A DNA stretch of 64,000 nt from Dehalococcoidia bacterium (GTDB lineage Bacteria > Chloroflexota > Dehalococcoidia > UBA2979), in NCBI GenBank assembly GCA_963667465.2, contig CAXXDN010000001.1, positions 864,001 to 928,000 of the forward strand, given 5' to 3'. Shown here in pieces: positions 25,691 to 48,658 of this stretch. How positions within the stretch are numbered: position 1 is the first letter of the stretch; each line of letters begins with the position of its first letter. The position numbers and the translations under genes are program-made. The notes below the pieces were generated by a model. It saw nothing but the letters and a program-made list of their open reading frames with translations. It did no database searches and was not told the origin of the DNA.

Positions 25691-25692
25691 CG

Positions 25693-29670: not shown

Positions 29671-30978
29671 CTACCTGACGCCCACCTCGTCCTTGATGAA
29701 GGCGGCGTCCGGGAGGTCCGGCTCCGGCTGGTAGAGGATCTCCTTCGCGTAGTCAGGGGTCGGCTTCTCCGCGTTGTACGGCTCGGTCTCCGGGTCGACG
29801 CCCGGCTCCGGCAGCACGACGGGGCCGCGCTCGCGCGACGGCAGCGAAACCAGGGCGTGACCCCACGAGGCGCGCCACTTCTGGCTGTCGTAGACCATCA
29901 CGATCTTGGCGAGGTTCTCGTCGCCGCGCTGGAACTTCTCGGTGACCTCGCCGTGGATCCAGCAGACATCGCCGTAGGCGACCGGGCGCCGGCCCAGCAT
30001 CGAGAGCTCGCGCAGGAAGGCGTCGTCGCCCATCCAGTTGGTGACCATCGTGGTGCCGTAGCCGCTGCGCGGCTGGAGCACGTCGAACATGTCCGGGAAG
30101 CCGGCGAAGCGCGCGAACTGCTGGTCGTAGTGGGTGCGCTCCGGCACGTCCGGCGTCTGCGTGTCCGGGTCCGGCACGTTGGCGCCGGGGTGGCGCTTGA
30201 AGTAGTTGTACATGTTGGTGTTGGACATCATGAACGGCGCGCCGGTACCCATGTAGTACGAGATGATCTCGCGACCCACGTAGGGCATCGTGATGTAGGG
30301 GCCGACCTTGTCGCCGACCTCGACGTCCTCGTAGTAGCGCGGCTCGGCGCCGCGCACCTCGATCTTGTCGTAGGCCTCCCAGAGGTCTTGCAGCTCCTCA
30401 TCGGTGTAGACGTGGCGGCGCCAGTCGCGGTGCGGGCTGGCGGTGTCGCGGCGGCCGCGTGCGGCGTCGCGCTCCCAGCGCTTCACGAGGCCCCAGTTGT
30501 TGGCGATCATCGTGCCGTCGTCCTCGTCCACCCAGGCGTGGCGGCGGACGACGTCCAGCATGCGGCCCGCGAAGCGGCTGGGCGCGAGGTAGTGGTCCCA
30601 CATGCAGCTCTTCATCTGGATGCGCAGGCCGAGGGTGACCGGCTTGTAGAACGTCCAGAACAGCGAGGCGTGCGTGGCGTGCACGCCGGGGAAGCCCCCG
30701 CCCCCCTGCCCGGCGCGACGGCCGAACGAGTCGAGGAACAGCGGGTGTGCGACCAGGCCGCCCCAGCGGGTGTTCGCGGCGTACTCCTCGTCCTGGAAGA
30801 GCGGGTTGGCATTGCCGATGCCGAGCGCGTAGTGCTCGAAGGCGTCGCGGGTGCAGTCGCGCCACCAGGGCACATCGGGTCGCCAGGAGGCGAAGCGCCT
30901 GGAGATGCGCTCCATCTCCTCGTCGGTGATCTTGCCCCAGGTGCTGGGTCGTTCTCGGCGCTCAGTCGTCACGGACAT
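29671..30978 (-). CDS. Tandem MaoC/hotdog-fold (R)-enoyl-CoA hydratase-like protein
   Basis: N-domain HYALGIGNANPLFQDEEYA..TRWGGLVAHP; C-domain YYEDVEVGD...HYD...TNWMGDDAFL...YGD. ATG after AAGGAG. Confidence 0.8.
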   Translation of the reverse strand: MSVTTERRERPSTWGKITDEEMERISRRFASWRPDVPWWRDCTRDAFEHYALGIGNANPLFQDEEYAANTRWGGLVAHPLFLDSFGRRAGQGGGGFPGVHATHASLFWTFYKPVTLGLRIQMKSCMWDHYLAPSRFAGRMLDVVRRHAWVDEDDGTMIANNWGLVKRWERDAARGRRDTASPHRDWRRHVYTDEELQDLWEAYDKIEVRGAEPRYYEDVEVGDKVGPYITMPYVGREIISYYMGTGAPFMMSNTNMYNYFKRHPGANVPDPDTQTPDVPERTHYDQQFARFAGFPDMFDVLQPRSGYGTTMVTNWMGDDAFLRELSMLGRRPVAYGDVCWIHGEVTEKFQRGDENLAKIVMVYDSQKWRASWGHALVSLPSRERGPVVLPEPGVDPETEPYNAEKPTPDYAKEILYQPEPDLPDAAFIKDEVGVR

Positions 30979-31068
30979 GCTCCTTCGTCGCTCGTCGGCA
31001 TACCGGCGTACCGGCAGCGCCACTATAATGCCGTTCACGGAAACGCGGGGCGCGTGCGAGGGACAGGC

Positions 31069-31185
31069 ATGGCGAACCAGACCGGCAAACGCTACTACTG
31101 CGAGCGCTGCGGCTCCGAGTTCATCGTCACCACCGGCGGCAGCGGCGAAATGACCTGCTGCGACCAGCCCGTCACGAGGCGCTAA
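31069..31185 (+). CDS. Desulforedoxin-like miniprotein 1 (38 aa)
   Basis: MANQTGKRYYCERCGSEFIVTTGGSGEMTCCDQPVTRR: CxxC-x15-CC mononuclear iron motif. TATAAT at 31024-31029. Confidence 0.8.
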   Translation: MANQTGKRYYCERCGSEFIVTTGGSGEMTCCDQPVTRR

Positions 31186-31188
31186 CCC

Positions 31189-31332
31189 GTGGTCAACGAT
31201 CTGGGACACCGCTACCGCTGCGAGGAGTGCGGCACCGTGGTGCTCTGCATCCGCCGCGGCGAGGGCGAGATCCACTGCTGCGCCAGACAGATGCTGCTGC
31301 TCGCCCCGCGCGAGTTGCCCTCGGCCGACTAG
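31189..31332 (+). CDS. Desulforedoxin-like miniprotein 2 (47 aa; absent from the ORF track)
   Basis: MVNDLGHRYRCEECGTVVLCIRRGEGEIHCCARQMLLLAPRELPSAD: same CxxC-x15-CC spacing; starts 3 nt after miniprotein 1. Confidence 0.8.
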   Translation: MVNDLGHRYRCEECGTVVLCIRRGEGEIHCCARQMLLLAPRELPSAD

Positions 31333-31346
31333 CTCGACTGGACGCG

Positions 31347-31811
31347 ATGCGCACGCTCGACATCTTCTTCGACGTCGACTACACGATTCTCGGCCTCGAC
31401 GGTTCACTGCGCCCGTGGACGCGCGAGGTGTTCGAGCGACTGCGGGCGGACGGGCACCGCGTGCATGTCTGGTCGGGCGCCGGCGACCGCTCGGCGGTGA
31501 TCCGGGAGCACGGGCTGGAGCACCTGGTGGAGGCCTGCTACCACAAGCCGCTCGCCGACCACGAGGCGGCGCTCGAGGTGCTCGGCGTCCCGCTCACTCC
31601 GGACTTCGTCGTCGACGACTCGCCGGAGATCCCGGCGGTCTTCGGCGGTGCGCTGGTGGCGGCCTACACGGCGGGCACGCCGAGCGACTTCTTCCCGCGC
31701 GACCGCGATGAGGAGCTGCTGCGCGCCTGCGAGGCGGCGCGCGAGTTCGCCACCACCGGCGCCTCGGCGGACCCTCGCTACTGCGCGAAGGGCAGCCGCG
31801 TCCGGCTCTAG
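31347..31811 (+). CDS. Small capless HAD-family protein
   Basis: FFDVDYT, VWSG, K, FVVDD motifs. Confidence 0.75.
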   Translation: MRTLDIFFDVDYTILGLDGSLRPWTREVFERLRADGHRVHVWSGAGDRSAVIREHGLEHLVEACYHKPLADHEAALEVLGVPLTPDFVVDDSPEIPAVFGGALVAAYTAGTPSDFFPRDRDEELLRACEAAREFATTGASADPRYCAKGSRVRL

Positions 31812-31915
31812 CGTGGGACGCCGCGGCGGCAATGGGGTCGGCGCCGCCCCGATGCCGCGCCCAAGGTGGTACAACAGGCACCGGGCGCGCGGACCGCGAG
31901 CGCGAGGGGGCGAGC

Positions 31916-33286
31916 ATGGCGGACAACGGGACGAGTGGAGACAGTGCCGGAGTTGGTACGGATAGTGGAGCGGCGCCCGGACTGCTGAGCGGCCTGCAGG
32001 TGCTCGACTTCAGCCAGTTCGCGTTCGGGCCGGTGGCCACGCGGCTGCTGGCCGACCTCGGGGCCGACGTGATCAAGGTCGAGCCGCTCGAGGGCGACTT
32101 CTCACGGCTGACGGCGGAGCCGTTCGTCGACAGCATCACCTTCATCTGCACCAACCTGAACAAGCGCAGCTTCTCCGTGAATCTCAAGGACGAGCGCGGT
32201 CTCGACGCTGTGAAGCGGCTTTGCGAGCGCGCTGACGTGCTGGTCGAGAACTTCCGGCCGGGCACCATGGACCGCATGGGCCTCGGCTACGAGGAGCTCT
32301 CGAAGATCAACCCGGGGCTGGTCTACGGCTCGTTCTCGATGTTCGGCGAGAGCGGCCCGCTCTCGCACCGCCGTGGCGGCGACATGTGGGCACAGGCCTT
32401 CGCCGGCTTCGTGACGAGCCAGACGGACCCCGAAGGCGATCAGTCGCCGTGGGTGAATGGACATAACGTCATCGACTACGGCGGCGGCGCCATCAATGCC
32501 TACTCGCTGATGGCCGCGCTCTGGCATCGCGAGCGCACCCGCAACGGCCAGAAGGTGACGAACAACCTCGTGAACACCGCCGTGCTGATGCAGTGGCCGG
32601 CGATCGCCCACTACCTCTCCGAGGGCATCGAGTTCCGCAAGGAGGGCCGTGGCGGGGTGCGCTCGCGCTTCCCCTACGCCGCCTACCCGGCGAGCGACGG
32701 CTACGTGCTGACGATCTTCGGGCAGGACGACACGGAGTGGCGCATCGTCTGCGAGATCCTCGAGATCGAGCACGTGCTGGACGACCCCCGCTACGACACG
32801 GTCGAGAAGCGCAACGCCGCGCGCCTCGAGCTCTACCCGGTGCTCGACGAGGCGTTCTCGAAGCGCACCCGCGTGGAGTGGCAGGAAGCGTTCCGCGCGC
32901 GCCAGCTGCGCTGCGACCCCTGCCTGAACTACGAGGAGTTCACGACGCACGGCCAGTTCATCGAGAACTCGATGGCGGTCACCGTGGACGACCCGCGTGA
33001 CGGCGAGCTGGTGATGCCCGCCAGCCCCGTGCGCTTCAGCAACTTCCCGCCGCCGCAGACGGCCAACCACTCGCCGATCCTCGGCGAGCACACGGAGCAG
33101 GTGCTCGCCGAACTGGGCTACGGCGACGACGAGATCGAGACGCTGTCCGAGGAGGGCGCCGTCGGCGTGCCGCTGCCGGACATGTTCACGGCGCAGCGGC
33201 AGCTGGTCGGCAAGGACGCACGCCAGCGCGGCGTCTTCAAGAGCACCAAGCTGGAGCGCGAGCAGCAGCAGGAGGCCTCCTCCTGA
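31916..33286 (+). CDS. Family III CoA transferase
   Basis: LSGLQVLDFS, LADLGADVIKVEP, NKRS, ENFRPG, catalytic-position Asp in VIDYGGG, PILGEHT. Confidence 0.9.
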   Translation: MADNGTSGDSAGVGTDSGAAPGLLSGLQVLDFSQFAFGPVATRLLADLGADVIKVEPLEGDFSRLTAEPFVDSITFICTNLNKRSFSVNLKDERGLDAVKRLCERADVLVENFRPGTMDRMGLGYEELSKINPGLVYGSFSMFGESGPLSHRRGGDMWAQAFAGFVTSQTDPEGDQSPWVNGHNVIDYGGGAINAYSLMAALWHRERTRNGQKVTNNLVNTAVLMQWPAIAHYLSEGIEFRKEGRGGVRSRFPYAAYPASDGYVLTIFGQDDTEWRIVCEILEIEHVLDDPRYDTVEKRNAARLELYPVLDEAFSKRTRVEWQEAFRARQLRCDPCLNYEEFTTHGQFIENSMAVTVDDPRDGELVMPASPVRFSNFPPPQTANHSPILGEHTEQVLAELGYGDDEIETLSEEGAVGVPLPDMFTAQRQLVGKDARQRGVFKSTKLEREQQQEASS

Positions 33287-34524
33287 CCACCGCGGACGGC
33301 GAGGGCGCGCCCGCAGGGGGCCTGCTGGAAGGCGTCACGGTCGTCGAGTACGGCCGCCTCTTCGCCGCGCCCTACACCGGCAAGCTGCTCGCCGACCTCG
33401 GCGCCGAGGTGATCAAGGTCGAGCACCCCGAGGGCGACCCGGCGCGGGCGGTCCCGCCCTACGCGGGCGACATCGAGGACCGCGAGCGCAGCCTCGCCTT
33501 CATGCACTTCAACACCAACAAGCTCGGCGTCAGCCTCGACATCGAGTCGGAGCAGGGCCGCGCGCTGCTGTTCGAGCTGCTCGCCGACGCGGACGTCTTC
33601 CTCGAAGACCTCTCGCCCGCCGATGCGGAGCGGCTGGGGCTGGACTACCCGAGCCTCGAGGATCGCTTCCCGCAGCTGATCGTCGCCGCGATCACGCCCT
33701 TCGGCTCGACCGGGCCGCAGCGCGACTACCGCGCCGAGGACCTCAACCTCTACATGTACGGCGGCGATGGCTTCACCAACCCCGGCGCCCTCGCCTACGA
33801 CACGCACCCCGACCGCGAGCCGGTGAAGCTGCCCTACGCGGCGGGCGAGGCGATCTCCGGCACCAGCGCCGCGCTCGCGATTGCGGCGGCGCTGTTCGTG
33901 CAGCCGCTGGCCGGCGGACAGTTCATCGACCTCTCGAGGCAGGAGGCGCACGTCTCGGTGATGCACCGCTTCCAGATGCGCAGCTACCTGACGGGCGGGA
34001 TCTACGAGACGCGGCCGACGAACAAGCACGCCTACGGCGACTGCGTGCCCTGCAAGGACGGCTACATCGTTGTCTACGCTGCGCAGAACCACCACTGGAA
34101 GATGCTCGTCGAGCTGATGGGCGAGCCGGAGTGGGCGCTCGACCCGGAGTTCGAGACGCAGGCCGGGCGCGCCGCCCGCGGCGACGAGATCCAGCGCGGC
34201 ATGGAGGAGTGGGCGAAGGACATCCCCGGCGAGGAGATCTACCGCGCCGCCCAGCGCCTCGGCGCGCCGATCGGACGCTTCCTCAACCTCGATGACGTCT
34301 CGACCTCGGAGCACGAGCGGGCGCGCGGCTTCTTCGTTGACGGCTACCACCCGATTGCCGGGGAGGCGGAGTATCCGCTGCAGCTCTTCCGCGCGACCGA
34401 GGATTCGCCGCAGTTCCGCCGCGCCGCCCCGCTGCTCGGCGAGCACAACCGCGAGGTGATCTGCGGGCGGCTCGGCCGCACGGCGCGCCAGCTGGACGTG
34501 CTGCGGCAGTCCGGCGTGGTGTAG
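33283..34524 (+). CDS. Family III CoA transferase, probably a non-catalytic (BbsE-like) subunit
   Basis: LLEGVTVVEYG...LADLGAEVIKVEHP, NTNK, APLLGEHN. The catalytic position reads AGEAISG. Start inferred at a CTG overlapping the upstream stop. Confidence 0.82.
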   Translation: MTTADGEGAPAGGLLEGVTVVEYGRLFAAPYTGKLLADLGAEVIKVEHPEGDPARAVPPYAGDIEDRERSLAFMHFNTNKLGVSLDIESEQGRALLFELLADADVFLEDLSPADAERLGLDYPSLEDRFPQLIVAAITPFGSTGPQRDYRAEDLNLYMYGGDGFTNPGALAYDTHPDREPVKLPYAAGEAISGTSAALAIAAALFVQPLAGGQFIDLSRQEAHVSVMHRFQMRSYLTGGIYETRPTNKHAYGDCVPCKDGYIVVYAAQNHHWKMLVELMGEPEWALDPEFETQAGRAARGDEIQRGMEEWAKDIPGEEIYRAAQRLGAPIGRFLNLDDVSTSEHERARGFFVDGYHPIAGEAEYPLQLFRATEDSPQFRRAAPLLGEHNREVICGRLGRTARQLDVLRQSGVV

Positions 34525-34549
34525 CGGTGCGAGGGAGCAGGGTGCGGCG

Positions 34550-35809
34550 ATGACGAACGACAGCCTCCCGCGGCGACCCCTCGAGGGCGTGCGCATCGTC
34601 GATTTCACGCATGTGCTGGTCGGCGGCTACTGCTCGCTGATGTGGTCCTCGCTGGGCGCGGAGTGCATCAAGATCGAGAGCAGCGCGCGACGTGACCCGG
34701 TGCGCACGCGCTCCGGCCGAAGCGCCGCGCAGGATCGCACGCAGGGGCAGATGTCCGTGCGCCGCGCGCGCGGCGGCCTCGACGAGTTCGGGCTCAACAA
34801 GCGCAGCGTCACGCTGAACCTCACGGAGCCGCGGGCCATCGAGCTTGCGAAGCGCCTCGTCGCCGTAAGCGACATGGTCGGCGAGAACTTCCGGCCGGGC
34901 GTGCTCGAGCGCAGGGGCCTCGGCTGGGAGGTGCTGAGCGAGGTCAACCCCGGGCTGGTCTACATCTCGATGTCCGCGGGCGGCGGCTACGGGCCGGACC
35001 GTGAGGACGCCGGGTACGCCTCGGTCTTCGCGGCGATGAGCGGCTTCAGCTCGATGTGGGGCTATGAGGACGGCCCGCCCGTGCTGTTCCGCCTGCCCTC
35101 CGACATGTGCGCCGGCGCGATGGGCGCCTTCGTCTCGATTGCGGCGCTGGTGCGCGCGAAGCGCACGGGCCGAGGGCAGCACATCGACCTCGCGAACCGC
35201 GAGACGCTCGCCTCCTACCTCGGCGACGCCTTCCTCGACTACTCCTACAACGGCCGCGTGCCGGCGCGGCGCGGCAACCGCCATCCGGCGTGGGCTCCGC
35301 ACGGCGTCTACCCGAGCGCGGGCGAGCACGAGGGCGGGCGCTGGATCACGATCGCCGTCACCTCGGACGAGGAGTGGCGCGCGCTGGCCCGCGCGATGGG
35401 CGACCCGGCGTGGGCGAGCGATCCGCGCTACGAGAGCGCCGCGGGCCGCCTCGCGGACCAGGACGCGCTGGACCGGCGGATCGGCGAGTGGACGGCGGAC
35501 CAGGACTGCTTCGAGTTGATGGAGCGCCTCCAGGCGGTCGGCGTGGCGGCCACGCCGGTCGGCTACCCGGAGGATGTGGCGTCCAGCCCGCAGCTCGAGG
35601 CGCGCGGCGCCTGGCGCGAGGTGGAACTACCGCAGGACGGCGGCACGACGCGCTGGTTCTCGCCCCCGTGGCGCTTCTCCAGGACGCCGACGGACATCCT
35701 TGAGCCGGCCCCGGAGATGGGCGAGGCGAACCACTACGTGTTCTGCGAGCTGCTCGGCATGGACGAGGACGAGGTGGAGCAGCTCAGCGCCGAGGGCGTA
35801 ATCGCGTAA
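34550..35809 (+). CDS. Family III CoA transferase (BbsF-like)
   Basis: PLEGVRIVDFT, NKRSVTLNL, ENFRPG, PSDMCAG, GNRHP..APHGVY. Confidence 0.9.
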   Translation: MTNDSLPRRPLEGVRIVDFTHVLVGGYCSLMWSSLGAECIKIESSARRDPVRTRSGRSAAQDRTQGQMSVRRARGGLDEFGLNKRSVTLNLTEPRAIELAKRLVAVSDMVGENFRPGVLERRGLGWEVLSEVNPGLVYISMSAGGGYGPDREDAGYASVFAAMSGFSSMWGYEDGPPVLFRLPSDMCAGAMGAFVSIAALVRAKRTGRGQHIDLANRETLASYLGDAFLDYSYNGRVPARRGNRHPAWAPHGVYPSAGEHEGGRWITIAVTSDEEWRALARAMGDPAWASDPRYESAAGRLADQDALDRRIGEWTADQDCFELMERLQAVGVAATPVGYPEDVASSPQLEARGAWREVELPQDGGTTRWFSPPWRFSRTPTDILEPAPEMGEANHYVFCELLGMDEDEVEQLSAEGVIA

Positions 35810-35963
35810 CGCCGCCTCGAAGGCCCCGCTGGGCGCCCTGCGGGATGCGGGAATCGCGCATAGTTGCTACCTTTGACGATGCAGGGCGGGGTTCGCGTGC
35901 AGGCTTGTGACGCCCACCCCACGCCTTCCCGCAACGTCGTGCCCGGACAAGGGAAACGAAACG

Positions 35964-37133
35964 ATGACGACGACCGCGAGTGAGCCGACGGCGAGCGACC
36001 CCACCACTAACGGTGCGGCCTCGAACGGGGCGCAGGCCGAGGGGCCGTTCGATGAGCTGATGAGCTTCGCGCAGGAGCGAGGCTACAAGCTCGACTGGCT
36101 GCGCAAGGCCGAGATCTGGGGCTCCGGCGAGGAGTCCGACCTCAGCCGAGGCGGCCTGCTGCTGCAGGATCTCGCGGGCAGCGATCCCGCCGAGGTGCCC
36201 GACAAGAGCGACAACCTGACCGGCCGCCCTCGTGGCACGCAGCCTCGCAAGGTCGCGCCGCGCGTCGGCAACTACCGCGTCCGCACGAAGGCGGACATCT
36301 GGCTGCGCAACGCCGCCGAGCTCTACGAGGAGGCTGTGCAGCGCCAGTGGTCCTCGGCGACCGACATCCCCTGGCACACCCTCACCGAGCTGCCCGACGA
36401 CATCGAGGCCGCCGAGTGCAAGCTGGCGACGTTCCTGACGGAGATCGAGTTCGTCGCCGGCGACGTGCCCGGCCGCTGGATCTCCGAGATCACGCCCGAG
36501 TATTTCGAGCCGCGCATGTTCCTGATCTCGCAGGTCGTGGACGAGGCGCGCCACCTCGATGTCTTCCGCAAGCGCGCCCTCGCCAACGGCGGCGGGCTGC
36601 TGGAGCGCAACCCGCGCGCCGGCAGCGATGTCTTCGCCGGCACCATCGACAGCGCCCGCGACTTCACGGAGATGTCGGCCAAGCTGCACATCTCCGGCGA
36701 GGGCTCCGTGCTGACGATCTTCCGCATGGGCGAGCGCATGGCCTACAACGACGCCGAGAAGATGATCTATCGCCTCGCCGCCTCCGATGAGGCGCGGCAC
36801 GTCGCCTTCGGCGTGATGCATCTGCAGTACCTCGGCCAGGCGATGCCGGAGCGGCGCGAGGAGATCCACTCCTATCTGGACGAGGCGGAGCGGGGGCTGA
36901 TCGCCGGGACGAACCAGAACCCGGCCGCGAACGCGAACCCCTCGAACGCCGCGCTTTCCGTTCTGCTCGGCGGCGGCAAGGACAAGATCGAAGAGGGCCA
37001 GCAGCTCGCGCTCGCGATGCGGCAGCGCCAGGTCAAGGAGTACGTCCAGCGCGTGACCGTCGCCGGCTTCGGCGAGCGTTTCGAAGAAGGCCGGGCCGCG
37101 GGCGAGTTGCTCCGCGCCTACGCCAATGCCTAG
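35964..37133 (+). CDS. Ferritin-like di-iron protein, putative catalytic subunit
   Basis: Complete E...ExxH...E...ExxH ligand set: TEIEF, DEARH, SGEGS, DEARH, with about 30 residues between each E and its ExxH. Confidence 0.85.
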   Translation: MTTTASEPTASDPTTNGAASNGAQAEGPFDELMSFAQERGYKLDWLRKAEIWGSGEESDLSRGGLLLQDLAGSDPAEVPDKSDNLTGRPRGTQPRKVAPRVGNYRVRTKADIWLRNAAELYEEAVQRQWSSATDIPWHTLTELPDDIEAAECKLATFLTEIEFVAGDVPGRWISEITPEYFEPRMFLISQVVDEARHLDVFRKRALANGGGLLERNPRAGSDVFAGTIDSARDFTEMSAKLHISGEGSVLTIFRMGERMAYNDAEKMIYRLAASDEARHVAFGVMHLQYLGQAMPERREEIHSYLDEAERGLIAGTNQNPAANANPSNAALSVLLGGGKDKIEEGQQLALAMRQRQVKEYVQRVTVAGFGERFEEGRAAGELLRAYANA

Positions 37134-37148
37134 GCGCCAGCGGTACGC

Positions 37149-38297
37149 ATGACGACACAATCACGCCAGGACGAGGCGCCGAGCCACGACGAGGCGCCGC
37201 AGCAGAGCGGGCCAGACCTCAGTTCGCCGCTCGCGGCCTCCTACTACACCGACTTCAGCTGGATGAAGCGCTCCCGCCAGTGGGGCACCCGCGCTCCGCG
37301 CGGCCCCGGCGGCGTGACGCTCGATGGCATCAACATCGGCGTCTACGGGGATCTCCCGGACAACTGGGATGAGCCCTCGAGGATGCCGCGCGGCGCCTAC
37401 CCGGTGTCCGGCGCGGTACCGCTGGGCCCGGCCTTCATCAGCCAGAAGTCGCGCCAGTGGGCCGATCACGCCCCCCACCTCTATGAGGAGTCGATCTCGC
37501 GCCGCTGGTCCACGGCTACGGACGTGCCGTGGGAGACCGCCCGCGATCTCCCGCACGACGTCGAGCTGGCAATGTGCCAGGTCGCGACCGAGCTGAGCCA
37601 CATCGGCTCGATCGAGGCGGAGGTCGTGTCCTCGTGGCTGGAGCTGCTCAGCTACGGCTTCCACGAGGTGAAGCTCTGCCTCTCCCGGCAGGTCTTCGAG
37701 TCCGCCCGCCAGTTCGAGGGCTGGCGCAAGCGCGCCCTGCTCAACGTCGACCAGCTCGGCCTCGAGAGCCCCGGCTGGGCGAACCGCATGCTGCTCGAGA
37801 GCCGAGTCGGCTGGACGGAGACCTGCCTGGCGCTGCACGTGCTGCGCGGCAGCTATCTACTGACGCTGCTCCGCTACCTCGCGGCCTACGGGCCCAGCGA
37901 GGCGGATCGCGCGCTGGCCGGCGGGATGGTGGCGGACAAGGCGCGGCACCTCGCCTACGGCATGGAGCACTCGCGCTACGCGCTCGGCAGCGAGCCGGAC
38001 TTCCGGGACTCCTGGAACCGCGCGCTGGTCGGGGCCGAGGCGGCCGTCAACCGCGACGAGGACGACCACGTGCTGCAGGAGGCGCTCGCGATCGTCTTCG
38101 GCGGCGGCGTGCGGAACATGGACCAGGGCATGCAGCTCGTGCGCCGGATGCGGCGCGACTGGACCCGCGCCTACCTCGCGCGCATGAACTGGATCGGCCT
38201 CGACCGCGATCCGTGGCTCACCCCGAGGATGCGCGAGAACTTCGAGGAGCCGGGCACGAACGGTACGGCGGACGCAGCCGGCGAGGCGGCGGGCTAG
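37149..38297 (+). CDS. Ferritin-like paralogue with degenerate metal site, putative structural subunit
   Basis: Shares LYEE...WS.ATD.PW and RKRAL with the upstream gene, but the ligand motifs read IGS, ESARQ, RGS and DKARH. Confidence 0.8.
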   Translation: MTTQSRQDEAPSHDEAPQQSGPDLSSPLAASYYTDFSWMKRSRQWGTRAPRGPGGVTLDGINIGVYGDLPDNWDEPSRMPRGAYPVSGAVPLGPAFISQKSRQWADHAPHLYEESISRRWSTATDVPWETARDLPHDVELAMCQVATELSHIGSIEAEVVSSWLELLSYGFHEVKLCLSRQVFESARQFEGWRKRALLNVDQLGLESPGWANRMLLESRVGWTETCLALHVLRGSYLLTLLRYLAAYGPSEADRALAGGMVADKARHLAYGMEHSRYALGSEPDFRDSWNRALVGAEAAVNRDEDDHVLQEALAIVFGGGVRNMDQGMQLVRRMRRDWTRAYLARMNWIGLDRDPWLTPRMRENFEEPGTNGTADAAGEAAG

Positions 38298-38298
38298 C

Positions 38299-38595
38299 GT
38301 GCCGATCCACGTCTACGAGTGCGATGCCTGCGCGTGCCGCTTCGAGGCGCTCGTGCGTGGCGACCGCGAGCCCTCGGGCTGCACCGAGTGCGGCTCGCCA
38401 CAGATCGAGCGGATGATCTCGCCGTTCGCGATCACGCGCCGCGAGGTCGACCAGATTCGCGACCTCGACCCCAAGTACAAGCAGATCGTCGACGACCTGA
38501 TCGCGTCGACGCCGGACGCGGAGCCGATGCGGCACCTCGAGCGACTGACCTCGTTCGACGAGGCCGATGATCCCGGCGAACCGATCGAGTTCTAG
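38299..38595 (+). CDS. FmdB-family zinc-ribbon protein
   Basis: MPIHVYECDACACRFE...CTECGS..IERMISPF. Confidence 0.82.
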   Translation: MPIHVYECDACACRFEALVRGDREPSGCTECGSPQIERMISPFAITRREVDQIRDLDPKYKQIVDDLIASTPDAEPMRHLERLTSFDEADDPGEPIEF

Positions 38596-38623
38596 ACGGC
38601 AACGGAATGGCAGGAGTGGCGTA

Positions 38624-39049
38624 GTGACAGTGTTGACCTTTCCCTCCGTGGAGTGGCTGCAAGCGCTTGCGGACCTGGCGAACGAAGACGAGGACTTCCA
38701 GAAGATCGGCCGCCTCGACGCGGTCGTCGGCCTGCGTATCGGCGCTGCGAGTTACCGGCTCACCTTCGAGGTGCTGACCTGCACCGACGTGCGCGAGGCG
38801 GACGACGAGGAGCTGGGCGAGGCCGACTTCGTGATCAACATGCCGGCGGGGATGTGGCAGGAGATGATCGACGACATCCGCGCGAACGGGCGGGCGACGG
38901 GCGATCACACGCTCAACTCGCTGGACCTGAGCATGGATGACCCGATCCACAGCAACGAGCAGGGCGACGGCTACCGGGCGGACAAGTTCTTCCGCTACAA
39001 CCCCAGCCTGCAGCGCTTCTTCGACAACGTCGCCCGCCTCGACGCCTGA
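38624..39049 (+). CDS. SCP2 (sterol-carrier)-like hypothetical protein
   Basis: FPSVEWLQALADLANED...ADFVI....WQEMI pattern of SCP2-fold proteins. GTG after AGGAG. Confidence 0.6.
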   Translation: MTVLTFPSVEWLQALADLANEDEDFQKIGRLDAVVGLRIGAASYRLTFEVLTCTDVREADDEELGEADFVINMPAGMWQEMIDDIRANGRATGDHTLNSLDLSMDDPIHSNEQGDGYRADKFFRYNPSLQRFFDNVARLDA

Positions 39050-39114
39050 CGGCGGCGGCAACGCACAAACGCGAGCAACACGAAGGTCCGACGCAGGAGA
39101 GGCGAGAGCAGCGC

Positions 39115-40293
39115 ATGGCGAAGATCGTCGAGGTGACGCCGTTCAAGGTGGGCCTGGAAGTCGAGAACATCACGGGCCGCGAGCGCCCTCGCCGCGGTGG
39201 CATGGTGATCGTGCGGATCCGCACTGACGACGGCATGGAGGGCTTCGGCGAGGGTAGCCTCCCGCACAAGGCGCGCGCGGTCGCCGGCGCAGTCGAGGAC
39301 TTCGCGGAGTACCTCGTCGGGCAGGACGACAGCCTGATCGAGCGCCACTGGCAGGTGCTCTACCGCAACGTCTTCCAGCGCGGCGGCGTGATCATGATGA
39401 CCGCCCAGAGCGCCATCGATCAGGCGTTGTGGGATATTGCAGGCAAGCGCTTCGGCGTGCCGATCTGGCAACTCATGGGCGGCGCGGTGCGCGATCGCAT
39501 CCTGCTCTACACCCACCCCGGAGGCTGGGACCGCGACCTGGTCGTCCAGCACTCGCTGGAGCGTGTCGAGGAGGGCTACCGCGCCCTCAAGCTGACGATC
39601 GCCCCGTCTCCGGAGCCGATCCGCGACACGCCACTGGTGGAGGCCAGCTACGAGCTGGTCGCCGCTGTCCGTGAGGCAGTCGGCCCCGACGTCAAGCTGA
39701 TGCTGGACTGCCACGGGAAGCTCTCGCCGACCGTCGCGATCGAGCTCGGGCACGCGCTCGAGCCGCTGGACCTGCTCTTCCTCGAGGAGCCGGTGCCGCC
39801 GCGCAACGTCGAGGCGATGCTGCTGGTCCGGAATGCGGTCACGGTCCCTCTCGCAACCGGTGAGCGGATGTACAACCGCTGGGACTTCCGCACGACGATC
39901 GAGTCGCAGGCCGTCGCCGTGCTGCAGCCGGATCTCGGCCACGCGGGCGGCATCTCCGAGACGCGCCGCATCGCGGCAGCGGCGGAGACCTACTTCATGG
40001 GCATCGCCCCGCACAACCCTCGAGGGCCGGGGGTGACGCTGGCGAGCCTGCAGATCGGGGCCTGCACGCCCAACTTCATCATCCAGGAGTCGGCGATCCC
40101 CCGCGGCGGGAGCAGTGAACTCTGGGACGCAATGCTCGTCGAGCCACTGTCGGTCAGCGACGGCTACGTCGACCTGCCGCGCGCGCCCGGCCTCGGCATC
40201 ACGTTCGACGAGGCGCTGCTCGACCGCTTCCCCTACACGGGCGCCGACACGGCTCACCCGACCGTTGCCGACGGGGGAGTTGGCGACTGGTAA
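39115..40293 (+). CDS. Mandelate racemase/galactonate dehydratase-like enolase (copy 1)
   Basis: SAIDQALWDIAGK, metal ligands D(CHG), EEP and GER, QPD, APHN, IQE. Confidence 0.9.
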   Translation: MAKIVEVTPFKVGLEVENITGRERPRRGGMVIVRIRTDDGMEGFGEGSLPHKARAVAGAVEDFAEYLVGQDDSLIERHWQVLYRNVFQRGGVIMMTAQSAIDQALWDIAGKRFGVPIWQLMGGAVRDRILLYTHPGGWDRDLVVQHSLERVEEGYRALKLTIAPSPEPIRDTPLVEASYELVAAVREAVGPDVKLMLDCHGKLSPTVAIELGHALEPLDLLFLEEPVPPRNVEAMLLVRNAVTVPLATGERMYNRWDFRTTIESQAVAVLQPDLGHAGGISETRRIAAAAETYFMGIAPHNPRGPGVTLASLQIGACTPNFIIQESAIPRGGSSELWDAMLVEPLSVSDGYVDLPRAPGLGITFDEALLDRFPYTGADTAHPTVADGGVGDW

Positions 40294-40377
40294 GCGCTGC
40301 CTCCTCGGTGGCTACGCGGCGCCCGCCAGGCTCTTCGGGCCTGCACGCCCCTCCCCGTCGTTCCGCACGCCCCTCCC

Positions 40378-40402
40378 GTCATTCTGGCGAAAGCCGAAAT
40401 CC
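40378..40402. repeat. Degenerate REP-like palindrome
   Basis: GTCATTCTGGCGAAAGCCGAAATCC resembles GTCATTCC-GCGAAAGC-GGAATCC-type REPs. It is preceded by a short duplication (GCACGCCCCTCCC twice). Confidence 0.45.
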
Positions 40403-40590
40403 CGGTACGCCAGCCCACTGCGCGGCGACCAATCGTGGTTGCAGGCTAGCGTCCTCGGGAGCGGATCCCGGCTGCCTTACCCTCGCGCTCAAGACAGGCC
40501 GATGCGCCGCCAGCGCGGGTTTGACTGTGCCGCAAGCCGCGCGTATCAACAGGTCTGATCAGCAATCAGCTTGCGAATCAAGGAGGAGCG

Positions 40591-41769
40591 ATGTCGCGCA
40601 TCGTCGAAGTGCGTCCGTTCATGGTCAACTTCCAACAGGGCACCGGCGGGGATCAGGCCCGCTACGGGGGCCGCGGCAACATGATGATCGTGCGGATCCG
40701 CACGGACGACGGCCTCGAGGGCTTCGGTGAGGGCACCCTCCCGCACAAGACGCGGGCGGTCGCCGGTGCTGTCGAGGACTTCGCGGAGTACCTCGTCGGC
40801 CAGGACGACAGCCTGATCGAGCGTCACTGGCAAGTGCTCTACCGCAACAGCTTCCAGCGCGGCGGCGTGGTCCTGATGACCGCGCAGAGCGCGATCGACC
40901 AGGCGCTGTGGGACATCGCCGGGAAGCGCTTCGGCGTGCCGGTCTGGCAGCTCATGGGCGGCGCCGTCCGCGACCGCATCCTGCTCTACACCCATCCCGG
41001 CGGCAACAGCCGCGATGAGATCGTCGATCGCACCCTTCAGCGCATCGAGGAGGGCTACCGCGCCTTCAAGACCGGGATTCCCGGCACGGCTGAGTGGATC
41101 AGCGACCGCAAGAAGGTGCAAGAGACGTACGAGAACATCGCCGCCGTGCGCGACGCCGTCGGCGACGACATGAAGGTCATGGTCGACGCGCACGGCAAGC
41201 AGTCGCCGACCGTGGCGATCGAGATCGCCAACGCCCTCGAGCCGCTGGACCTGCTGTTCTTCGAGGAGCCGGTGCCGCCGCGCAACGTCGACGCGATGCT
41301 GCTGGTCTCGGCGGCTACGAACGTGCCGCTGGCCACGGGCGAGCGGATGTACAACCGCTGGGACTTCCGCACGACGATCGAGTCGCAGGCCGTCTCGGTG
41401 CTGCAGCCGGACCTCGGCCACGCGGGGGGCATCTCCGAGACGCGCCGCATCGCGGCGGCGGCGGAGACCTACTTCATGGGCATCGCGCCGCACAACCCTC
41501 GAGGGCCGGGCGTGACGCTGGCGAGCCTGCACATCGCGGCCTGCACGCCCAACTTCATCATCCAGGAGAGCTCGATCCCGATCGGCGGCGACGAGCTCTG
41601 GGACGAGATGCTGGTGGAGCCGCTCGTCGTGAAGGATGGCTACGTCGACCTGCCGCAGGCGCCGGGCATCGGCATCACGTTCGACGAGTCGATCGCGGAG
41701 CGCTATCCGTTCCAGGGCCGCGATACGGGTCACCCGGTGCTCGCCGACGGCAGCGTCGGCGACTGGTAG
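40591..41769 (+). CDS. Mandelate racemase/galactonate dehydratase-like enolase (copy 2)
   Basis: Same motifs and same length (392 aa) as copy 1, with long identical blocks. Confidence 0.9.
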   Translation: MSRIVEVRPFMVNFQQGTGGDQARYGGRGNMMIVRIRTDDGLEGFGEGTLPHKTRAVAGAVEDFAEYLVGQDDSLIERHWQVLYRNSFQRGGVVLMTAQSAIDQALWDIAGKRFGVPVWQLMGGAVRDRILLYTHPGGNSRDEIVDRTLQRIEEGYRAFKTGIPGTAEWISDRKKVQETYENIAAVRDAVGDDMKVMVDAHGKQSPTVAIEIANALEPLDLLFFEEPVPPRNVDAMLLVSAATNVPLATGERMYNRWDFRTTIESQAVSVLQPDLGHAGGISETRRIAAAAETYFMGIAPHNPRGPGVTLASLHIAACTPNFIIQESSIPIGGDELWDEMLVEPLVVKDGYVDLPQAPGIGITFDESIAERYPFQGRDTGHPVLADGSVGDW

Positions 41770-41779
41770 GAGGCACGAG

Positions 41780-42511
41780 ATGCTTGGTCCCGACGCGAGC
41801 GTGATGATCTTCGGCGCGCACGCCGCCGACTACTGCTTCCGTGCCGGCGGCACGGCGATCCGTTACCTCCAGGCCGGCGCGCGCGTGAAGGTGGTGAGCG
41901 CCACCTTCGGCGAGCGCGGCGAATCCGCCCCGCGCTGGAAGGAGCCCGGCGCGACCGTCGAGTCCGTGAAGGCGATCCGGCGCTCCGAGGCCGAGGCGGC
42001 CGCGCGGACGCTCGGCGTGGAGATCGAGTTCCTCGACCTGGACGACAACCCGCTCGTGATCGACCAGGAGCGCATGCAGCTCTACATCGACCAGCTCCGC
42101 GACTACAAGCCGGACATCATCCTCACGCACTGGACCTACGAGCCGACGAACCGCGATCACCAGACGGTCGCGGAGACCGTGATCCGCGCGACCGGGCTGG
42201 CCCGAACCCAGGCAACGATGGCCGGTGAGTCGCTGCCGAGGGCGAAGATCTTCCACTTCGAGCCGGACATCCTCAGCCAGCCGATCCTCAGCTACGTGCC
42301 GGACACCTACATCGACATCGGCCCGGTGGTGGAGCAAAAGTTCGAGGCGCTGCGCTGCTTCGCGGTGTCGCAGCCGGGGCTGCTCGACCGCTGGCCGCCG
42401 CACACCGAGGCGCGCGGGGTCGAGGCCTCCGGCATCGGCGGGCTGGCAGGCTGCACGCACGCCGAGTCGTTCCGGCGCTTCCAGCCGTACGCGGGCGACT
42501 ACTTCGTCTGA
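41780..42511 (+). CDS. PIG-L family protein, GalB (4-oxalomesaconate hydratase)-like
   Basis: GAHAADYCFRAGG, FGERGES, ILTH...NRDH; resembles the GalB pattern SAHSADFVWRAGG. Confidence 0.75.
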   Translation: MLGPDASVMIFGAHAADYCFRAGGTAIRYLQAGARVKVVSATFGERGESAPRWKEPGATVESVKAIRRSEAEAAARTLGVEIEFLDLDDNPLVIDQERMQLYIDQLRDYKPDIILTHWTYEPTNRDHQTVAETVIRATGLARTQATMAGESLPRAKIFHFEPDILSQPILSYVPDTYIDIGPVVEQKFEALRCFAVSQPGLLDRWPPHTEARGVEASGIGGLAGCTHAESFRRFQPYAGDYFV

Positions 42512-42542
42512 GCGCGGCTGCCGCGGCTAGCGTCGGCGGGCG

Positions 42543-43604
42543 CTACGCGAGAGCCTCGAGGCGCAGCTCGTACCAGCCGTCCCAGGCCGCGCCGGGCTCC
42601 AGCACGATCAGGCCCGGGTCCGGGACGCCCCCGGTCATCAGGTTGAAGGCGTTCGGCATGCAGGTGTGCGGCTCGAACGAGACGACCGGCGCGTCGGGCG
42701 GCGTGTAGAAGACGATCGCGCTCAGCCCCTCGCTGGCGTCGAGCGTGGCCTGAAGGCCGTTCGTGCGGTCGGTCAGGCGGCCGCGCATTCCACTCGCCGC
42801 GCCTCCCGATTCGCCACGGAGTATGAACTTGTGGTTGCGGGCCGGGCCCGCCGCCGTGTTCGCGTTCGGCGTGAGCGCCGAGAGCGGCAGCGCGCGGCGC
42901 GGCCATTCGGCCGCCGCCACCGGCGAGACCACGGCCGGAGGCGTCGAGGTGCTCTCCCAGCGCTCCGTCGCTGCGAGGGCGACCGCGCAGTCCTCGGCGC
43001 TCCCGGCGGGACCGAGGGGTGTAGGGAAGTAGGGGTGAAAGCCGAGGCCGAACGGCATCGGCTCGTCCGAGGCGTTCTCGATGCGCACCTCGATGCGCAG
43101 CCGTCCGTCGCGCAGCACGACGCGCAGCTCGCAGCCGAAGGCCCATGGCCAGGCGCTGGCGGGGATGCCGTCCTCGAGACTCGCGAGGCGCGTGGTGACC
43201 CAGGCGCCGTCCTCGGAGTCCGCGCCGGAGTCGATGACGCGCCAGGCGCGCCAGCGCACGGCGCCGTGCATCGCGTTGCCTGCCTGCGGGTCCGCCGGCA
43301 GCTCGATGCGGCGACCGCGGAACTCGAAGGCGTCGCCGCTGACCCGGCCGGGGTAGGGGAAGAGCATCCCGGCGCCCCAGCGCGTCGGCAGCCGGCTGAG
43401 CGTCTCGAGGGTCGGCGGGCCCGCGATCACCTCGACCAGGTCGCCCTCCGGGTCGCCTGCGGGGCGCGTGGCGAAGCGCGTCACGTTGCTGCCGCGCGAG
43501 GGCACGACGTGCGCGATCGAGCCCGTCGCGGGCTCGTGCAAGCGGACGACCACGTGGTCCTCGATGGTGACGGTGTCGACGGAGGGGGCGGCGGGGGTGG
43601 GCAT
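42543..43604 (-). CDS. Aldose 1-epimerase family
   Basis: LFPYPGRV, NAMHG, MPFGLGFHPYF, FEPHTCMPNAFN. Confidence 0.85.
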   Translation of the reverse strand: MPTPAAPSVDTVTIEDHVVVRLHEPATGSIAHVVPSRGSNVTRFATRPAGDPEGDLVEVIAGPPTLETLSRLPTRWGAGMLFPYPGRVSGDAFEFRGRRIELPADPQAGNAMHGAVRWRAWRVIDSGADSEDGAWVTTRLASLEDGIPASAWPWAFGCELRVVLRDGRLRIEVRIENASDEPMPFGLGFHPYFPTPLGPAGSAEDCAVALAATERWESTSTPPAVVSPVAAAEWPRRALPLSALTPNANTAAGPARNHKFILRGESGGAASGMRGRLTDRTNGLQATLDASEGLSAIVFYTPPDAPVVSFEPHTCMPNAFNLMTGGVPDPGLIVLEPGAAWDGWYELRLEALA

Positions 43605-43622
43605 GCCGGTCGGTGGGTGCGG

Positions 43623-44468
43623 CTACGCGGTCTCGGTGCGCCAGCTGTGCTGCGGGCGGTAGCCGAGCATGCGCTTCGCTTTCGCGCAGCTGATCGGGCC
43701 CTCGGTACCCGTGAGGCCCGCGCAGGCGGCCTCGCTGCCGGGGAAGCGGCGTGGGAAGGCGGTGGCGAGCGGCTCGCGGCTCATCGCGTCGTCGGCGGTG
43801 ATGAAGAAGCGGTCGTGCTCGATCGCTGTGTCCTCGAGGGCGGCCCGCACCGCGCGCGCGAAGTCACGAGCGTCGACGTAGGCGAGGATGCCCCCGCCGT
43901 TCTCGAGCATCCTCGGCACGCGCTCGGCGTAGTCCTCGGGGCCGACGACGCTGGTCGGCCGCAGCACGATGCTGCGGATGCCGGTGCGGCGCGTCGCGGC
44001 CTCGAGGATCTCCTCGCCGAGCCACTTGGAGAGGCCGTAGGCGTCCTGCGGGCGCAGCGGGTGCTCCTCGTCCATCGGCATGTAGTCGGGGACCATGTCG
44101 CGGAAGCGGAAGGCGAAGCCGAGCGCGGAGCCGCTGCTGCTATAGATCACCTTCCGCGCGTCCTGGCGAATCGCCGCCTCGACGACGTTGAAGGTGCTCG
44201 TCATGTTGTTGGCGAAGACGTCCTCCGGCTCGCGCCCGATTGGCGAAGGGATCGCCGCGAGGTGCACGATCGCCTCGGCGCCCTCGGCCACCCGTGCGAC
44301 CGCCTCGACGTCGGTCAGGTCGGCCTGCTCGTAGCGCACACCCGGGCGGACGGCGTCCGGGGGCGGCGAGTCCTCCAGGCCGGCGACGATGACCTCGTGG
44401 TCGTCGCGCAGCTCCTCGACGACCCAGCGTCCGAGGCGACCGCTGCCGCCGGTGATGAGCAGTCTCAC
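43623..44468 (-). CDS. NAD-dependent epimerase/dehydratase (extended SDR)
   Basis: TGGSGRLG, VHLAA, YGLSK. Confidence 0.88.
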   Translation of the reverse strand: MRLLITGGSGRLGRWVVEELRDDHEVIVAGLEDSPPPDAVRPGVRYEQADLTDVEAVARVAEGAEAIVHLAAIPSPIGREPEDVFANNMTSTFNVVEAAIRQDARKVIYSSSGSALGFAFRFRDMVPDYMPMDEEHPLRPQDAYGLSKWLGEEILEAATRRTGIRSIVLRPTSVVGPEDYAERVPRMLENGGGILAYVDARDFARAVRAALEDTAIEHDRFFITADDAMSREPLATAFPRRFPGSEAACAGLTGTEGPISCAKAKRMLGYRPQHSWRTETA

Positions 44469-44475
44469 CGTGCGC

Positions 44476-45498
44476 TCATCGATCGAAGTGGAAGCAGATC
44501 TTGCCGCTCGCGGCGTCGTCCGCGAGCTGGAAGCCGCGCGCGCCTTCCTCGATGCTCAGGTCCTCGCTGACGATCGCGTCGAGGTCGATCTGCTTGCGGC
44601 GGACGAAGTCGCAGAGGGTGTCCCACTGGCTCATCGGGTAGATGGTGGAGCCGAAGACGGTGATCTCCCAACGCGTGATCTCGTTGAGCGAGGTCTGGAA
44701 GGTCGGGTTGCCCAGCCCGACCAGCGCCGCCGTACCCAGCGGCCGCACGATGCTGCTGATCGCCTCGTGCGCGGGTGTCGCCCCCGAGGTCTCGACGAGC
44801 TTGTCCGCGCCGTCCGGCCAGTGCGCCTTCACGGCTGCGCCGATCTCGCCGGCCGTCGGGTCGAGCGTGGCGGCCGCGCCGAGGTCCGAGGCGAGACTGC
44901 GGCGGCTCTCGACGGGGTCGATGCCGATCACCTCGGCGCCCATCGCGATCGCGAACTGCGTGGCCAGCAGGCCGACCGGGCCGAGGCCGGAGACGGCGAT
45001 GCGGTCGAGGCCACCCGCTCCGAGCCGCACGAGCGGCGCGAAGGCGGTGCCGCCCTGGCAGGCGAGGATGCTGCCCGCGCGGTAGCTGACATCGTCCGGC
45101 AGCCGCATGGTTGCGCTCGCATCGGCGGTCATCAGCTCGGCGTCGGAGCCGCCCGCGCCGAAGCCGTAGCCCGGCCGGATGATGGCGCAGACGTGGTTGT
45201 TGCCGGTGATGCAGTAGCGGCAGGTCCCGCAAGTGCGGCGGAAGTAGACGACAGCCCGGTCGCCGACCGACCAGCCCTCGACGCCGTCGCCGACGGCGGC
45301 GACGACCCCACAGCCCTCGTGGCCGGGGGTGACCGCGTTGTCGATGAACGCGGGGCGGGGGTTGCGGTAGATGTGCAGGTCGCTGCCGCAGATCGCCGAG
45401 GCCTGCATCGCGATCAGCAGCTCGCCTGGCCCCGGCTCCGGATCCGGCTTGTCGACGACCTCGATTGCTCGTTCCCCGACGATGCTCAATGCGCGCAC
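44476..45498 (-). CDS. Zn-dependent alcohol/polyol dehydrogenase (MDR)
   Basis: ICGSDLH, GHE, CGTCRYC...C, GLGPVG. Confidence 0.9.
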   Translation of the reverse strand: MRALSIVGERAIEVVDKPDPEPGPGELLIAMQASAICGSDLHIYRNPRPAFIDNAVTPGHEGCGVVAAVGDGVEGWSVGDRAVVYFRRTCGTCRYCITGNNHVCAIIRPGYGFGAGGSDAELMTADASATMRLPDDVSYRAGSILACQGGTAFAPLVRLGAGGLDRIAVSGLGPVGLLATQFAIAMGAEVIGIDPVESRRSLASDLGAAATLDPTAGEIGAAVKAHWPDGADKLVETSGATPAHEAISSIVRPLGTAALVGLGNPTFQTSLNEITRWEITVFGSTIYPMSQWDTLCDFVRRKQIDLDAIVSEDLSIEEGARGFQLADDAASGKICFHFDR

Positions 45499-45556
45499 GG
45501 CGGCTCCTTCCCGGGCTCGGTGTGCTGGTGTGGTTGCGCGCGTCCCGCGCGCGGGG

Positions 45557-46510: not shown

Positions 46511-46563
46511 CGTTACCCCGCAGGCTGCTGTCGGTTCTCAGCTCTCCTGATTTTGGCTGAAGA

Positions 46564-48429: not shown

Positions 48430-48547
48430 CTGCTCCCCCTCCCGTGTGGCTGTGCCACTACGGCTATTACCCGGATCCGGGCTTCGTCTTCTACTGTACG
48501 TTTCCCGTAGGGCAGCAGATTACCTGCGCCAGCCGGTAACCGTCTAC

Positions 48548-48620
48548 CCTCCGTGGCCTCCGTGGCCTCCGTGGCCTCCGTGGCCTCCGTGGCCTCCGTG
48601 GCCTCCGTGCGCCTCCGTGC
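48548..48620. repeat. Intergenic 9-bp tandem repeat (CCTCCGTGG)x6 plus two variant units
   Basis: Read directly from the sequence. Confidence 0.92.
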
Positions 48621-48658
48621 GCCGCCGGGGGCGTCCGCCGGACCCGCGCAAAACGTCC

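Follow-up and report, generated by a model that had tools for sequence, protein, structure and literature searches.

The PaaABCDE system combines a catalytic ferritin-fold subunit, PaaA, with a paralogue, PaaC, that lacks the metal site. In R2lox, a Tyr–Val ether cross-link lies next to the metal site, and PMC9314684 presents a protein that has been studied structurally for more than ten years with no established function. According to PMC11705231, VlmB acts together with VlmO on hydrazine intermediates and belongs to gene clusters for natural products. Here we analyze a 64-kb stretch of DNA from a Dehalococcoidia bacterium (the window: 64,000 nucleotides, positions 864,001 to 928,000 of contig CAXXDN010000001.1, assembly GCA_963667465.2) that encodes FerA, an R2lox-like protein with a putative dimetal-carboxylate site, and FerB, its ligand-less paralogue. 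A first-pass annotation had placed both in a 9.4-kb run of genes that was read as an oxygenase acting on acyl-coenzyme A (CoA) substrates. The comparisons below lead us, with moderate confidence, to a smaller functional unit, in which the four-gene cassette FerA–FerB–FmdB–P3 (35964–39049), and not the 9.4-kb run, would encode an O2-using heteromer. Its genes are arranged as follows (aa, amino acids; ORF, open reading frame):

35964–37133, plus strand: FerA, R2lox-like putative dimetal-carboxylate subunit, 389 aa; likely ATG start at 35964, the longest ORF running from a GTG at 35907
37149–38297, plus strand: FerB, ligand-less paralogue of FerA, 15 bp downstream of the FerA stop
38299–38595, plus strand: FmdB-type Cys4 zinc-ribbon protein (PF09723, 38.0 bits, cut-off 34.4; TIGR02605, 37.2 bits, cut-off 31.3)
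38621–39049, plus strand: P3, small protein with a predicted SCP2 fold, 142 aa; alternative ORF start at 38567

Because the G+C content of the window is 70%, coding frames were picked by third-position GC, which is 0.85–0.96 for each gene noted in the first pass versus 0.70 overall. Together with Pfam and NCBIfam scans, this confirmed every one of those genes as a real ORF with the coordinates it had been assigned. Just ahead of the FerA start at 35964 lies a ribosome-binding site of the GGGAAAC type, and this start agrees with 389-aa homologues.

FerA and FerB are 29% identical over 327 aa (E 4e-45). The predicted metal ligands of FerA are E181, E213/H216, E265 and E295/H298 (numbering of the 408-aa ORF), and all six are invariant in 71/71 orthologues taken from 80 related loci. 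FerB of the window has G, S/Q, G and K/H at these positions, and 59 FerB orthologues have A/G at the first carboxylate position, A/S/N/G/C (with one D) at the second, G or another small residue at the third and K/R or a hydrophobic residue at the fourth. The earlier description of an intact and a degenerate ferritin-fold protein side by side was therefore accurate, the four carboxylate positions being replaced in FerB. A tree that combined the 71 FerA with the 59 FerB sequences and took 14 bona fide R2lox proteins as outgroup separates the two groups into reciprocally monophyletic clades (support 0.95 and 0.97), with the caveat on this split that sequences were assigned to FerA or FerB by their best BLAST match to the window pair. 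Gammaproteobacterial sequences form one clade within FerA and one within FerB. Reciprocal monophyly indicates that the duplication is old and that both genes have one shared history. FerB thus appears to be an ancient paralogue of FerA and is probably a structural subunit.

Neither protein has a Pfam match at E≤0.01, and at E≤10 there are chance-level matches only. FerA scores 27.8 bits against the NCBIfam R2lox model (NF006200; cut-off 194), which does not match FerB. When a FerA-family profile (59 sequences) was searched against the PDB, a VlmB homologue was the top match (6d9f, E 2e-10); R2lox 4hr0 and its relatives (about 2e-6) and a phenol hydroxylase (E 0.2) were also found, and PaaA, BoxB, MmoX and AurF are absent among the 23 PDB sequences matched at E≤10. 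An equivalent search with FerB returned nothing at E≤1. Profiles were also aligned with hhalign, using 14 R2lox sequences above the NCBIfam cut-off from Chloroflexota genomes and 11 PaaA-type proteins. FerA aligned with R2lox at a probability of 95.5% (E 1.6e-8, 181 columns) and with PaaA at 0.8% (E 0.071), and FerB aligned with R2lox at 12% (E 0.0024). PF05138 did not match FerA at E≤10 and has no member in the source genome or in five cassette-bearing gammaproteobacterial genomes. FerA also stays below the cut-off of the AurF family (PF11583, 10.6 bits versus 29.6); among its relatives, a distant 658-aa protein (P0260) is the sole one above it, at 31.6 bits. The prediction that the pair lies outside characterized families thus held. 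Nearest to it are R2lox and VlmB, not PaaA/C or the soluble di-iron monooxygenases with which it had been compared. Judged by sequence, FerA is a remote relative of both, a member of neither, and fits no curated family.

The conserved partners are small. In FmdB, C8, C11 and C28 are invariant in 29 sequences, a fourth Cys is present although shifted in 4/29, and the C-terminal tail follows the pattern LDPKY..(M)VD...(A/S)(D/E)P (for example LDPKYDRMVD...ADP). The best PDB profile match of P3 is Thermus thermophilus SCP2 (2cx7, E 0.09). For P0301, a homologue with 57% identity, the ESM Atlas offers a model (pTM 0.77). Over 129 aligned residues this model reaches TM-scores of 0.75/0.79 against a cluster where PF02036 is found in 89% of the members, and feature-based neighbours of the homologue are automatically named 'putative SCP2 domain-containing protein'. 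An SCP2 fold for P3 is therefore supported by a predicted model, via this homologue rather than the window protein itself.

Co-inheritance of the four genes is observed across two phyla. The 80 best-scoring loci of 543 confirmed relatives in species-representative genomes were compared, with flanks of up to ±10 kb (going by record title, 50 from Dehalococcoidia/Chloroflexota/SAR202 and 30 of Gammaproteobacteria type); related genomes among them are not independent. Co-occurrence was scored by tblastn with 16 window proteins over the 57 loci whose sequence continues for 4.5 kb or more past FerA on the downstream side. Of these, 53 contain FerB, 53 contain P3 and 47 contain FmdB, while the full trio is found in 47. 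This bears out the association of the pair with FmdB and SCP2-like genes that had been claimed from the window. P3 occurs once or twice per locus, often as two paralogous copies. Unbiased clustering of 1343 ORFs from the 80 loci gave the same core, with FerA/B in 75 loci, P3 in 48, FmdB in 36 and CoA-transferase III in 23. All other clusters reach 13 loci at most, and these minor clusters are each confined to particular lineages; they include transporters, acyl-CoA dehydrogenases, 2-oxoacid:ferredoxin oxidoreductase, an epoxide hydrolase and a thiolase.

The FerA family comprises at least 1976 proteins in a set of 5.8 billion (682 clusters at 50% identity), annotated only as 'hypothetical' or 'ferritin-like domain-containing', and we found no paper on the FerA–FerB–FmdB–P3 cassette in open-access text. 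The family is present in 17/41 relatives and 8/18 congeners, with up to seven matches in one genome (G030) and five in another (G025). At several loci FerA stands alone, or its contig is separate from FerB–FmdB–P3 (L017/L018 in G024, L015 in G022, L041, L050, L053 and L094); lone or separated FerA loci are split cassettes or spare catalytic subunits. In L068, L085 and related SAR202-type loci, genes for an epoxide hydrolase (EHN plus abhydrolase) and an MFS transporter lie directly upstream of the cassette, with three acyl-CoA dehydrogenase genes and a 2-oxoacid:ferredoxin oxidoreductase close by; the epoxide-hydrolase cluster occurs in five loci. The metagenomic cluster representative P0133 was a candidate fusion of a FerA-like portion (61% identity) with an FrhB/FdhB F420-type domain. 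It was dropped as a possible assembly chimera, and tblastn found no such domain in the fetched loci or in the source genome.

The remaining genes of the 9.4-kb run, the two genes to its left and a larger block that varies within the genus are:

27336–28691, minus strand: family-I CoA-transferase/hydrolase (AcetylCoA_hydro/AcetylCoA_hyd_C)
28731–29624, minus strand: LLM oxidoreductase (Bac_luciferase)
29671–30993, minus strand: double-hotdog (MaoC-like) hydratase, 440 aa (MaoC/FAS1_DH at aa 44–128; weak HadB-like match at aa 286–331)
31072–31185, plus strand: Dx1, desulforedoxin-like miniprotein, 37 aa (PF06397, Desulfoferrod_N, 32.9 bits versus cut-off 23)
31189–31332, plus strand: Dx2, desulforedoxin-like miniprotein, 47 aa (PF06397, 28.8 bits versus cut-off 23)
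31344–31811, plus strand: small HAD-like gene, 155 codons (weak matches to Cof-type HAD, E 0.0013, and Hydrolase_3, E 0.061; DVDYT motif)
31832/31913–33286, plus strand: first CoA-transferase III gene (CoA_transf_3, PF02515, E 2.6e-97)
33409–34524, plus strand: second CoA-transferase III gene (PF02515, E 3.6e-71)
34550–35809, plus strand: third CoA-transferase III gene (PF02515, E 3.5e-94)
35891–52434, strand not applicable: 16.5-kb block present or absent within the genus, delimited by the collinearity of two congeners (G012 and G014) on both sides

The co-oriented run described in the first pass has the plus-strand gene order reported, but it does not end at 39049: two enolase-superfamily dehydratase-like genes and then a PIG-L gene extend it to 42511. 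Both miniproteins carry a CxxC-15-CC motif, and both fall below the cut-off of TIGR00319 (22.1 and 24.4 bits versus 36.05). None of the 75 loci from other genera has a Dx, HAD-like or hotdog gene beside the cassette; LLM genes are found in six of them and enolase genes in four. Since tblastn is insensitive for queries of 37–47 aa, a CxxC-13..17-CC motif scan of the 80 loci was added; true matches occur in same-genus loci only, the rest being Arg/Pro-rich frames or the FmdB gene. The inclusion of the Dx, HAD-like and hotdog proteins as members of the system could therefore not be upheld.

Comparison within the genus separates the two halves of the run directly. In all eight cassette-bearing congeners, as in the window, the genes of the run are contiguous and co-oriented, and an orthologous hotdog gene is found in 10/18 congeners. 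Two genomes, G012 and G014 (loci L112 and L113), keep the series LLM–hotdog–Dx1–Dx2–HAD with three CoA-transferase III genes at 85–97% amino-acid identity (92–93% for the three CoA-transferase III genes) with the cassette absent. What is missing from these otherwise collinear genomes, and present in the eight congeners, is the 16.5-kb block, which contains the cassette, three enolase-superfamily genes, PIG-L, aldose 1-epimerase, NAD-epimerase and Zn-ADH genes and an ABC transporter. The absent stretch corresponds to 35891..52465 in G012 and to about 36027..52434 in G014. In G014, 40 codons from the beginning of the FerA ORF survive (92.5% identity), which indicates a deletion there, and the boundaries in the two genomes differ by about 30–135 bp, so there were possibly two separate deletions.

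Synonymous changes outnumber non-synonymous ones in 5/7 same-genus comparisons of Dx1 and 7/7 of Dx2. In the cassette-less G012 and G014 the ratios are 6:2 and 3:1 for Dx1 and 7:3 and 8:4 for Dx2, a pattern suggesting that both genes are still under purifying selection where the cassette is gone. Dx1 and Dx2 are real genes but no part of the cassette. The same is true of the HAD-like gene, whose family occurs in 65/201 genomes of the class; none of 11 loci has a Dx-like gene within 1.5 kb of it, L140 giving one low-complexity motif match. The hotdog hydratase belongs to the CoA-transferase block, and because four of the seven hotdog paralogues of the source genome have a CoA-transferase III gene within 6 kb, this left block has several counterparts. 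The arrangement of a hotdog gene with at least two CoA-transferase genes after it recurs in the genome, with an identical 1438-bp spacing at C1:63619 and C2:1502998. The cassette is gained or lost in the genus along with a sugar-acid/ABC-transporter block and merely abuts the CoA-transferase/hydratase block.

A mechanism is proposed in which FerA, judged by its homology and ligand set to have a complete di-iron or Mn/Fe site, would most likely activate O2 and oxidize a bound organic substrate by two electrons (hydroxylation, desaturation or similar). FerB would pair with FerA as a structural subunit, as PaaC does with PaaA, and P3 would probably hold or deliver a hydrophobic substrate, itself probably an acid. 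The FmdB Cys4 protein may serve as a docking or structural partner, or as a one-metal electron relay. Gene anatomy, ligand conservation, the ranking of homologues, co-inheritance and independence from the left block are observed, and the O2 chemistry, the heteromer, what P3 and FmdB do and the hydrophobic nature of the substrate are inferred. That the cassette is scattered among the congeners, and that some relatives carry several copies, suggests an accessory role, probably a catabolic one. Going further, we suggest tentatively, and as a minority expectation, that these proteins constitute an undescribed four-component oxygenase class, made up of an R2-like catalytic subunit, a dead twin, one or two SCP2-fold carriers and a Cys4 partner. 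It might serve SAR202-type Dehalococcoidia and marine Gammaproteobacteria, often in several copies, to attack carboxylic acids, hydrophobic or alicyclic, that are part of recalcitrant dissolved organic matter. Electrons would come from general cellular donors by way of the Cys4 protein, and a dedicated reductase would not be needed.

The first-pass model differs in making the left block part of the enzyme system: CoA-transferases activate an acid, FerA/FerB oxygenates or desaturates the acyl-CoA, the Dx miniproteins feed electrons, the SCP2 protein binds the thioester and the hotdog hydratase acts next. SCP2 proteins bind acyl-CoA, and the gene order in the window and in the eight cassette-bearing congeners would suit such a pathway. 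The model is nevertheless unlikely, given the whole left blocks of the cassette-less G012 and G014 with their Dx genes under purifying selection, the absence of Dx, HAD-like and hotdog genes beside the cassette outside the genus and the lack of profile-level relationship between FerA and PaaA. Its proposed CoA-transferase link receives divided evidence. The source genome (2.97 Mb) holds 113 CoA-transferase III genes (118 Pfam matches), alongside 39 LLM-like and 7 double-hotdog genes, so CoA-transferase neighbours are expected by chance: the probability that a random cassette-sized span has such a neighbour is 0.19 for ±2 kb, 0.28 for ±5 kb and 0.39 for ±10 kb. Outside the genus, 19/75 loci have one within ±10 kb (13/41 of those with full flanks), a crude comparison that shows no enrichment over the 0.39 of the source genome. 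Those in other lineages are only 25–43% identical to the window genes and hence different paralogues. Among the gammaproteobacterial loci, 11/30 have a CoA-transferase 1.4–5.3 kb downstream, in genomes with only 21–56 such genes, which favours the link, but all 11 loci come from a single clade and are not independent. What does favour a thioester is that 16/96 loci from four lineages, eight of these loci same-genus, have a same-strand CoA-transferase III gene no more than 900 bp from the cassette. The non-genus cases are downstream in sister genera (L014/L054, L016, L037, L042, L052) and upstream in L024 and L058. Chance would give about 3%, as estimated from the 113 genes, so the recurrent adjacency fits the thioester idea better than pure chance, and a thioester substrate keeps a small share of the probability.

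An SCP2-fold partner beside a di-metal hydroxylase-like protein also calls to mind Coq7, a di-iron enzyme assisted by proteins that present the lipid, for instance Coq9 or UbiJ, the latter an SCP2 protein. By this analogy the cassette could encode a biosynthetic or housekeeping hydroxylase that modifies a lipid or quinone, with no catabolic role, and a Pfam SCP2 gene does abut R2lox in 1/17 bona fide R2lox loci (L134; 81/114 flanking ORFs scanned). We regard this as quite improbable for a cassette that is patchily distributed within its genus and among relatives, is missing with its block from congeners, one of which keeps a FerA remnant, and is present in several copies in some genomes; the transporters, acyl-CoA dehydrogenases, epoxide hydrolase and thiolases that flank it in other lineages fit an accessory role better. 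Rubrerythrin provides a model for a four-helix dimetal protein with a Cys4 electron source, and FerA fed by a separate Cys4 protein could by that model serve in peroxide or oxygen detoxification or in metal handling. The conserved Cys4 partner, and two further FeS4-type miniproteins nearby in the source genus, would agree with this. However, the FerA profile matches R2lox, VlmB and phenol hydroxylase in the PDB and neither rubrerythrin nor ferritin, FmdB resembles a zinc ribbon, a ligand-less paralogue subunit is typical of substrate-oxidizing enzymes and the scheme has no place for a conserved SCP2-fold partner, all of which makes it a very remote prospect. The four-gene oxygenase thus remains our preferred reading, and the CoA-transferase adjacency is not the only observation that weighs against it. 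R2lox has no established function, so likening FerA to it says little about chemistry. FerA is alone in 4/57 loci, and in one relative it lies on a different contig from the rest of the cassette, so the coupling is not absolute. No conserved electron donor accompanies the cassette, as no reductase or ferredoxin is shared across the 80 loci, and for a relay through FmdB it is unhelpful that its profile finds only weak zinc-finger matches in the PDB (E≥0.012) and no rubredoxin. Of the original SCP2-like call for P3, the fold assignment stands through the P0301 model, but Pfam gives it no support: none of 39 P3 members reaches the PF02036 cut-off (best E 0.17, in one member), and hhalign against two single Pfam-positive SCP2 proteins gave a probability of 0.1%.

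Scans for regulatory features gave no promoter-like site in 29000–43000, one terminator-like site versus 3.1 expected and no Rfam family in the window; the region upstream of FerA contains a 12-nt palindrome and nothing further. An RNA library labelled as a sponge metagenome (X1), compared over 27000–44000, contains contigs of 253–463 nt with about 92–96% identity to several window genes. Two match FerA, at 35988–36324 and 36800–37075, and others match the Dx/HAD region, the CoA-transferases and one enolase gene. These contigs come from a close relative, may be DNA carry-over, and are no evidence of an operon. A second library (X7) yielded a single 46-nt piece. Elsewhere in the window, a glycine-cleavage set (P subunits 1 and 2, H and T) lies at 22839–27263, just left of the CoA block, a GlnD–PII–ammonium transporter set occupies the left end (2273–6559), and three ORFs of 406, 592 and 164 aa at 57646–61179 (third-position GC 0.89–0.95) have no Pfam match at E≤1e-5.

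The FerA family can be regarded as a sister family of the functionally unassigned R2lox that comes with a constant set of companions, namely its dead twin, the SCP2-fold carriers and the Cys4 protein. Abundant marine heterotrophs carry it, including genomes labelled SAR202. As a defined four-gene unit, the cassette is expressible and directly testable, and it may reveal the role of the R2lox branch of the ferritin superfamily. For annotation, keeping it apart from the many CoA-transferase/hydratase modules avoids false pathway assignment. What this analysis adds is the deletion seen inside the genus, a control for chance CoA-transferase neighbours, the exclusion of PaaA and a Tyr-to-Leu difference from R2lox.

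Of the known systems, the soluble di-iron monooxygenases (MmoX/Y and phenol hydroxylase; PF02332) resemble the cassette in being multi-subunit ferritin-fold oxygenases with small accessory subunits. Pfam gives no PF02332 match for FerA, and no reductase, Rieske ferredoxin or MmoB-type effector is among the gene clusters shared by the 80 loci. The first-pass statement that such proteins are missing nearby was correct, as a Pfam scan of 52 window ORFs found no ferredoxin, Rieske protein, FNR-type reductase or MmoB-type protein. PaaA/PaaC likewise combine a catalytic subunit with a ligand-less paralogue, a resemblance of design only, and the scanned window ORFs include no equivalents of PaaB, PaaD or PaaE. 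The match to VlmB-type diiron oxygenases (6d9f, 8wvr) spans positions 163–299 of the FerA profile and includes both ExxH helices. For VlmB, PMC11705231 describes no ligand-less paralogue, SCP2 protein or zinc ribbon, and the Pfam-scanned ORFs of the window contain no vlm-type partner genes.

The likeness to R2lox goes furthest. The two share the E / ExxH / E / ExxH ligand set, with the predicted FerA ligands aligning with the R2lox motifs, and have a similar second motif (DEARHVAFG vs DESRHLAYG). R2lox has a Mn/Fe cofactor and binds a fatty acid inside a hydrophobic channel, and as a trait shared with it, a hydrophobic ligand is likely for FerA by analogy. In loci of R2lox itself, the SCP2 gene of L134 (Chloroflexota) occupies 1113–1502 with R2lox directly after it at 1504–2412, and a DCC1-like thiol-disulfide oxidoreductase gene adjoins R2lox in three genomes (L117–L119). 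The cross-link valine (V77) is kept as V183 of FerA, Val in 71/71 sequences, whereas in the hhalign alignment the cross-link tyrosine, invariant in R2lox (Y167 of A7), faces L260, Leu in 71/71. FerA also carries an N-terminal extension of about 70 residues and, in contrast to R2lox, which stands alone in 16/17 loci, is normally paired with its ligand-less paralogue and with FmdB and SCP2-fold genes.

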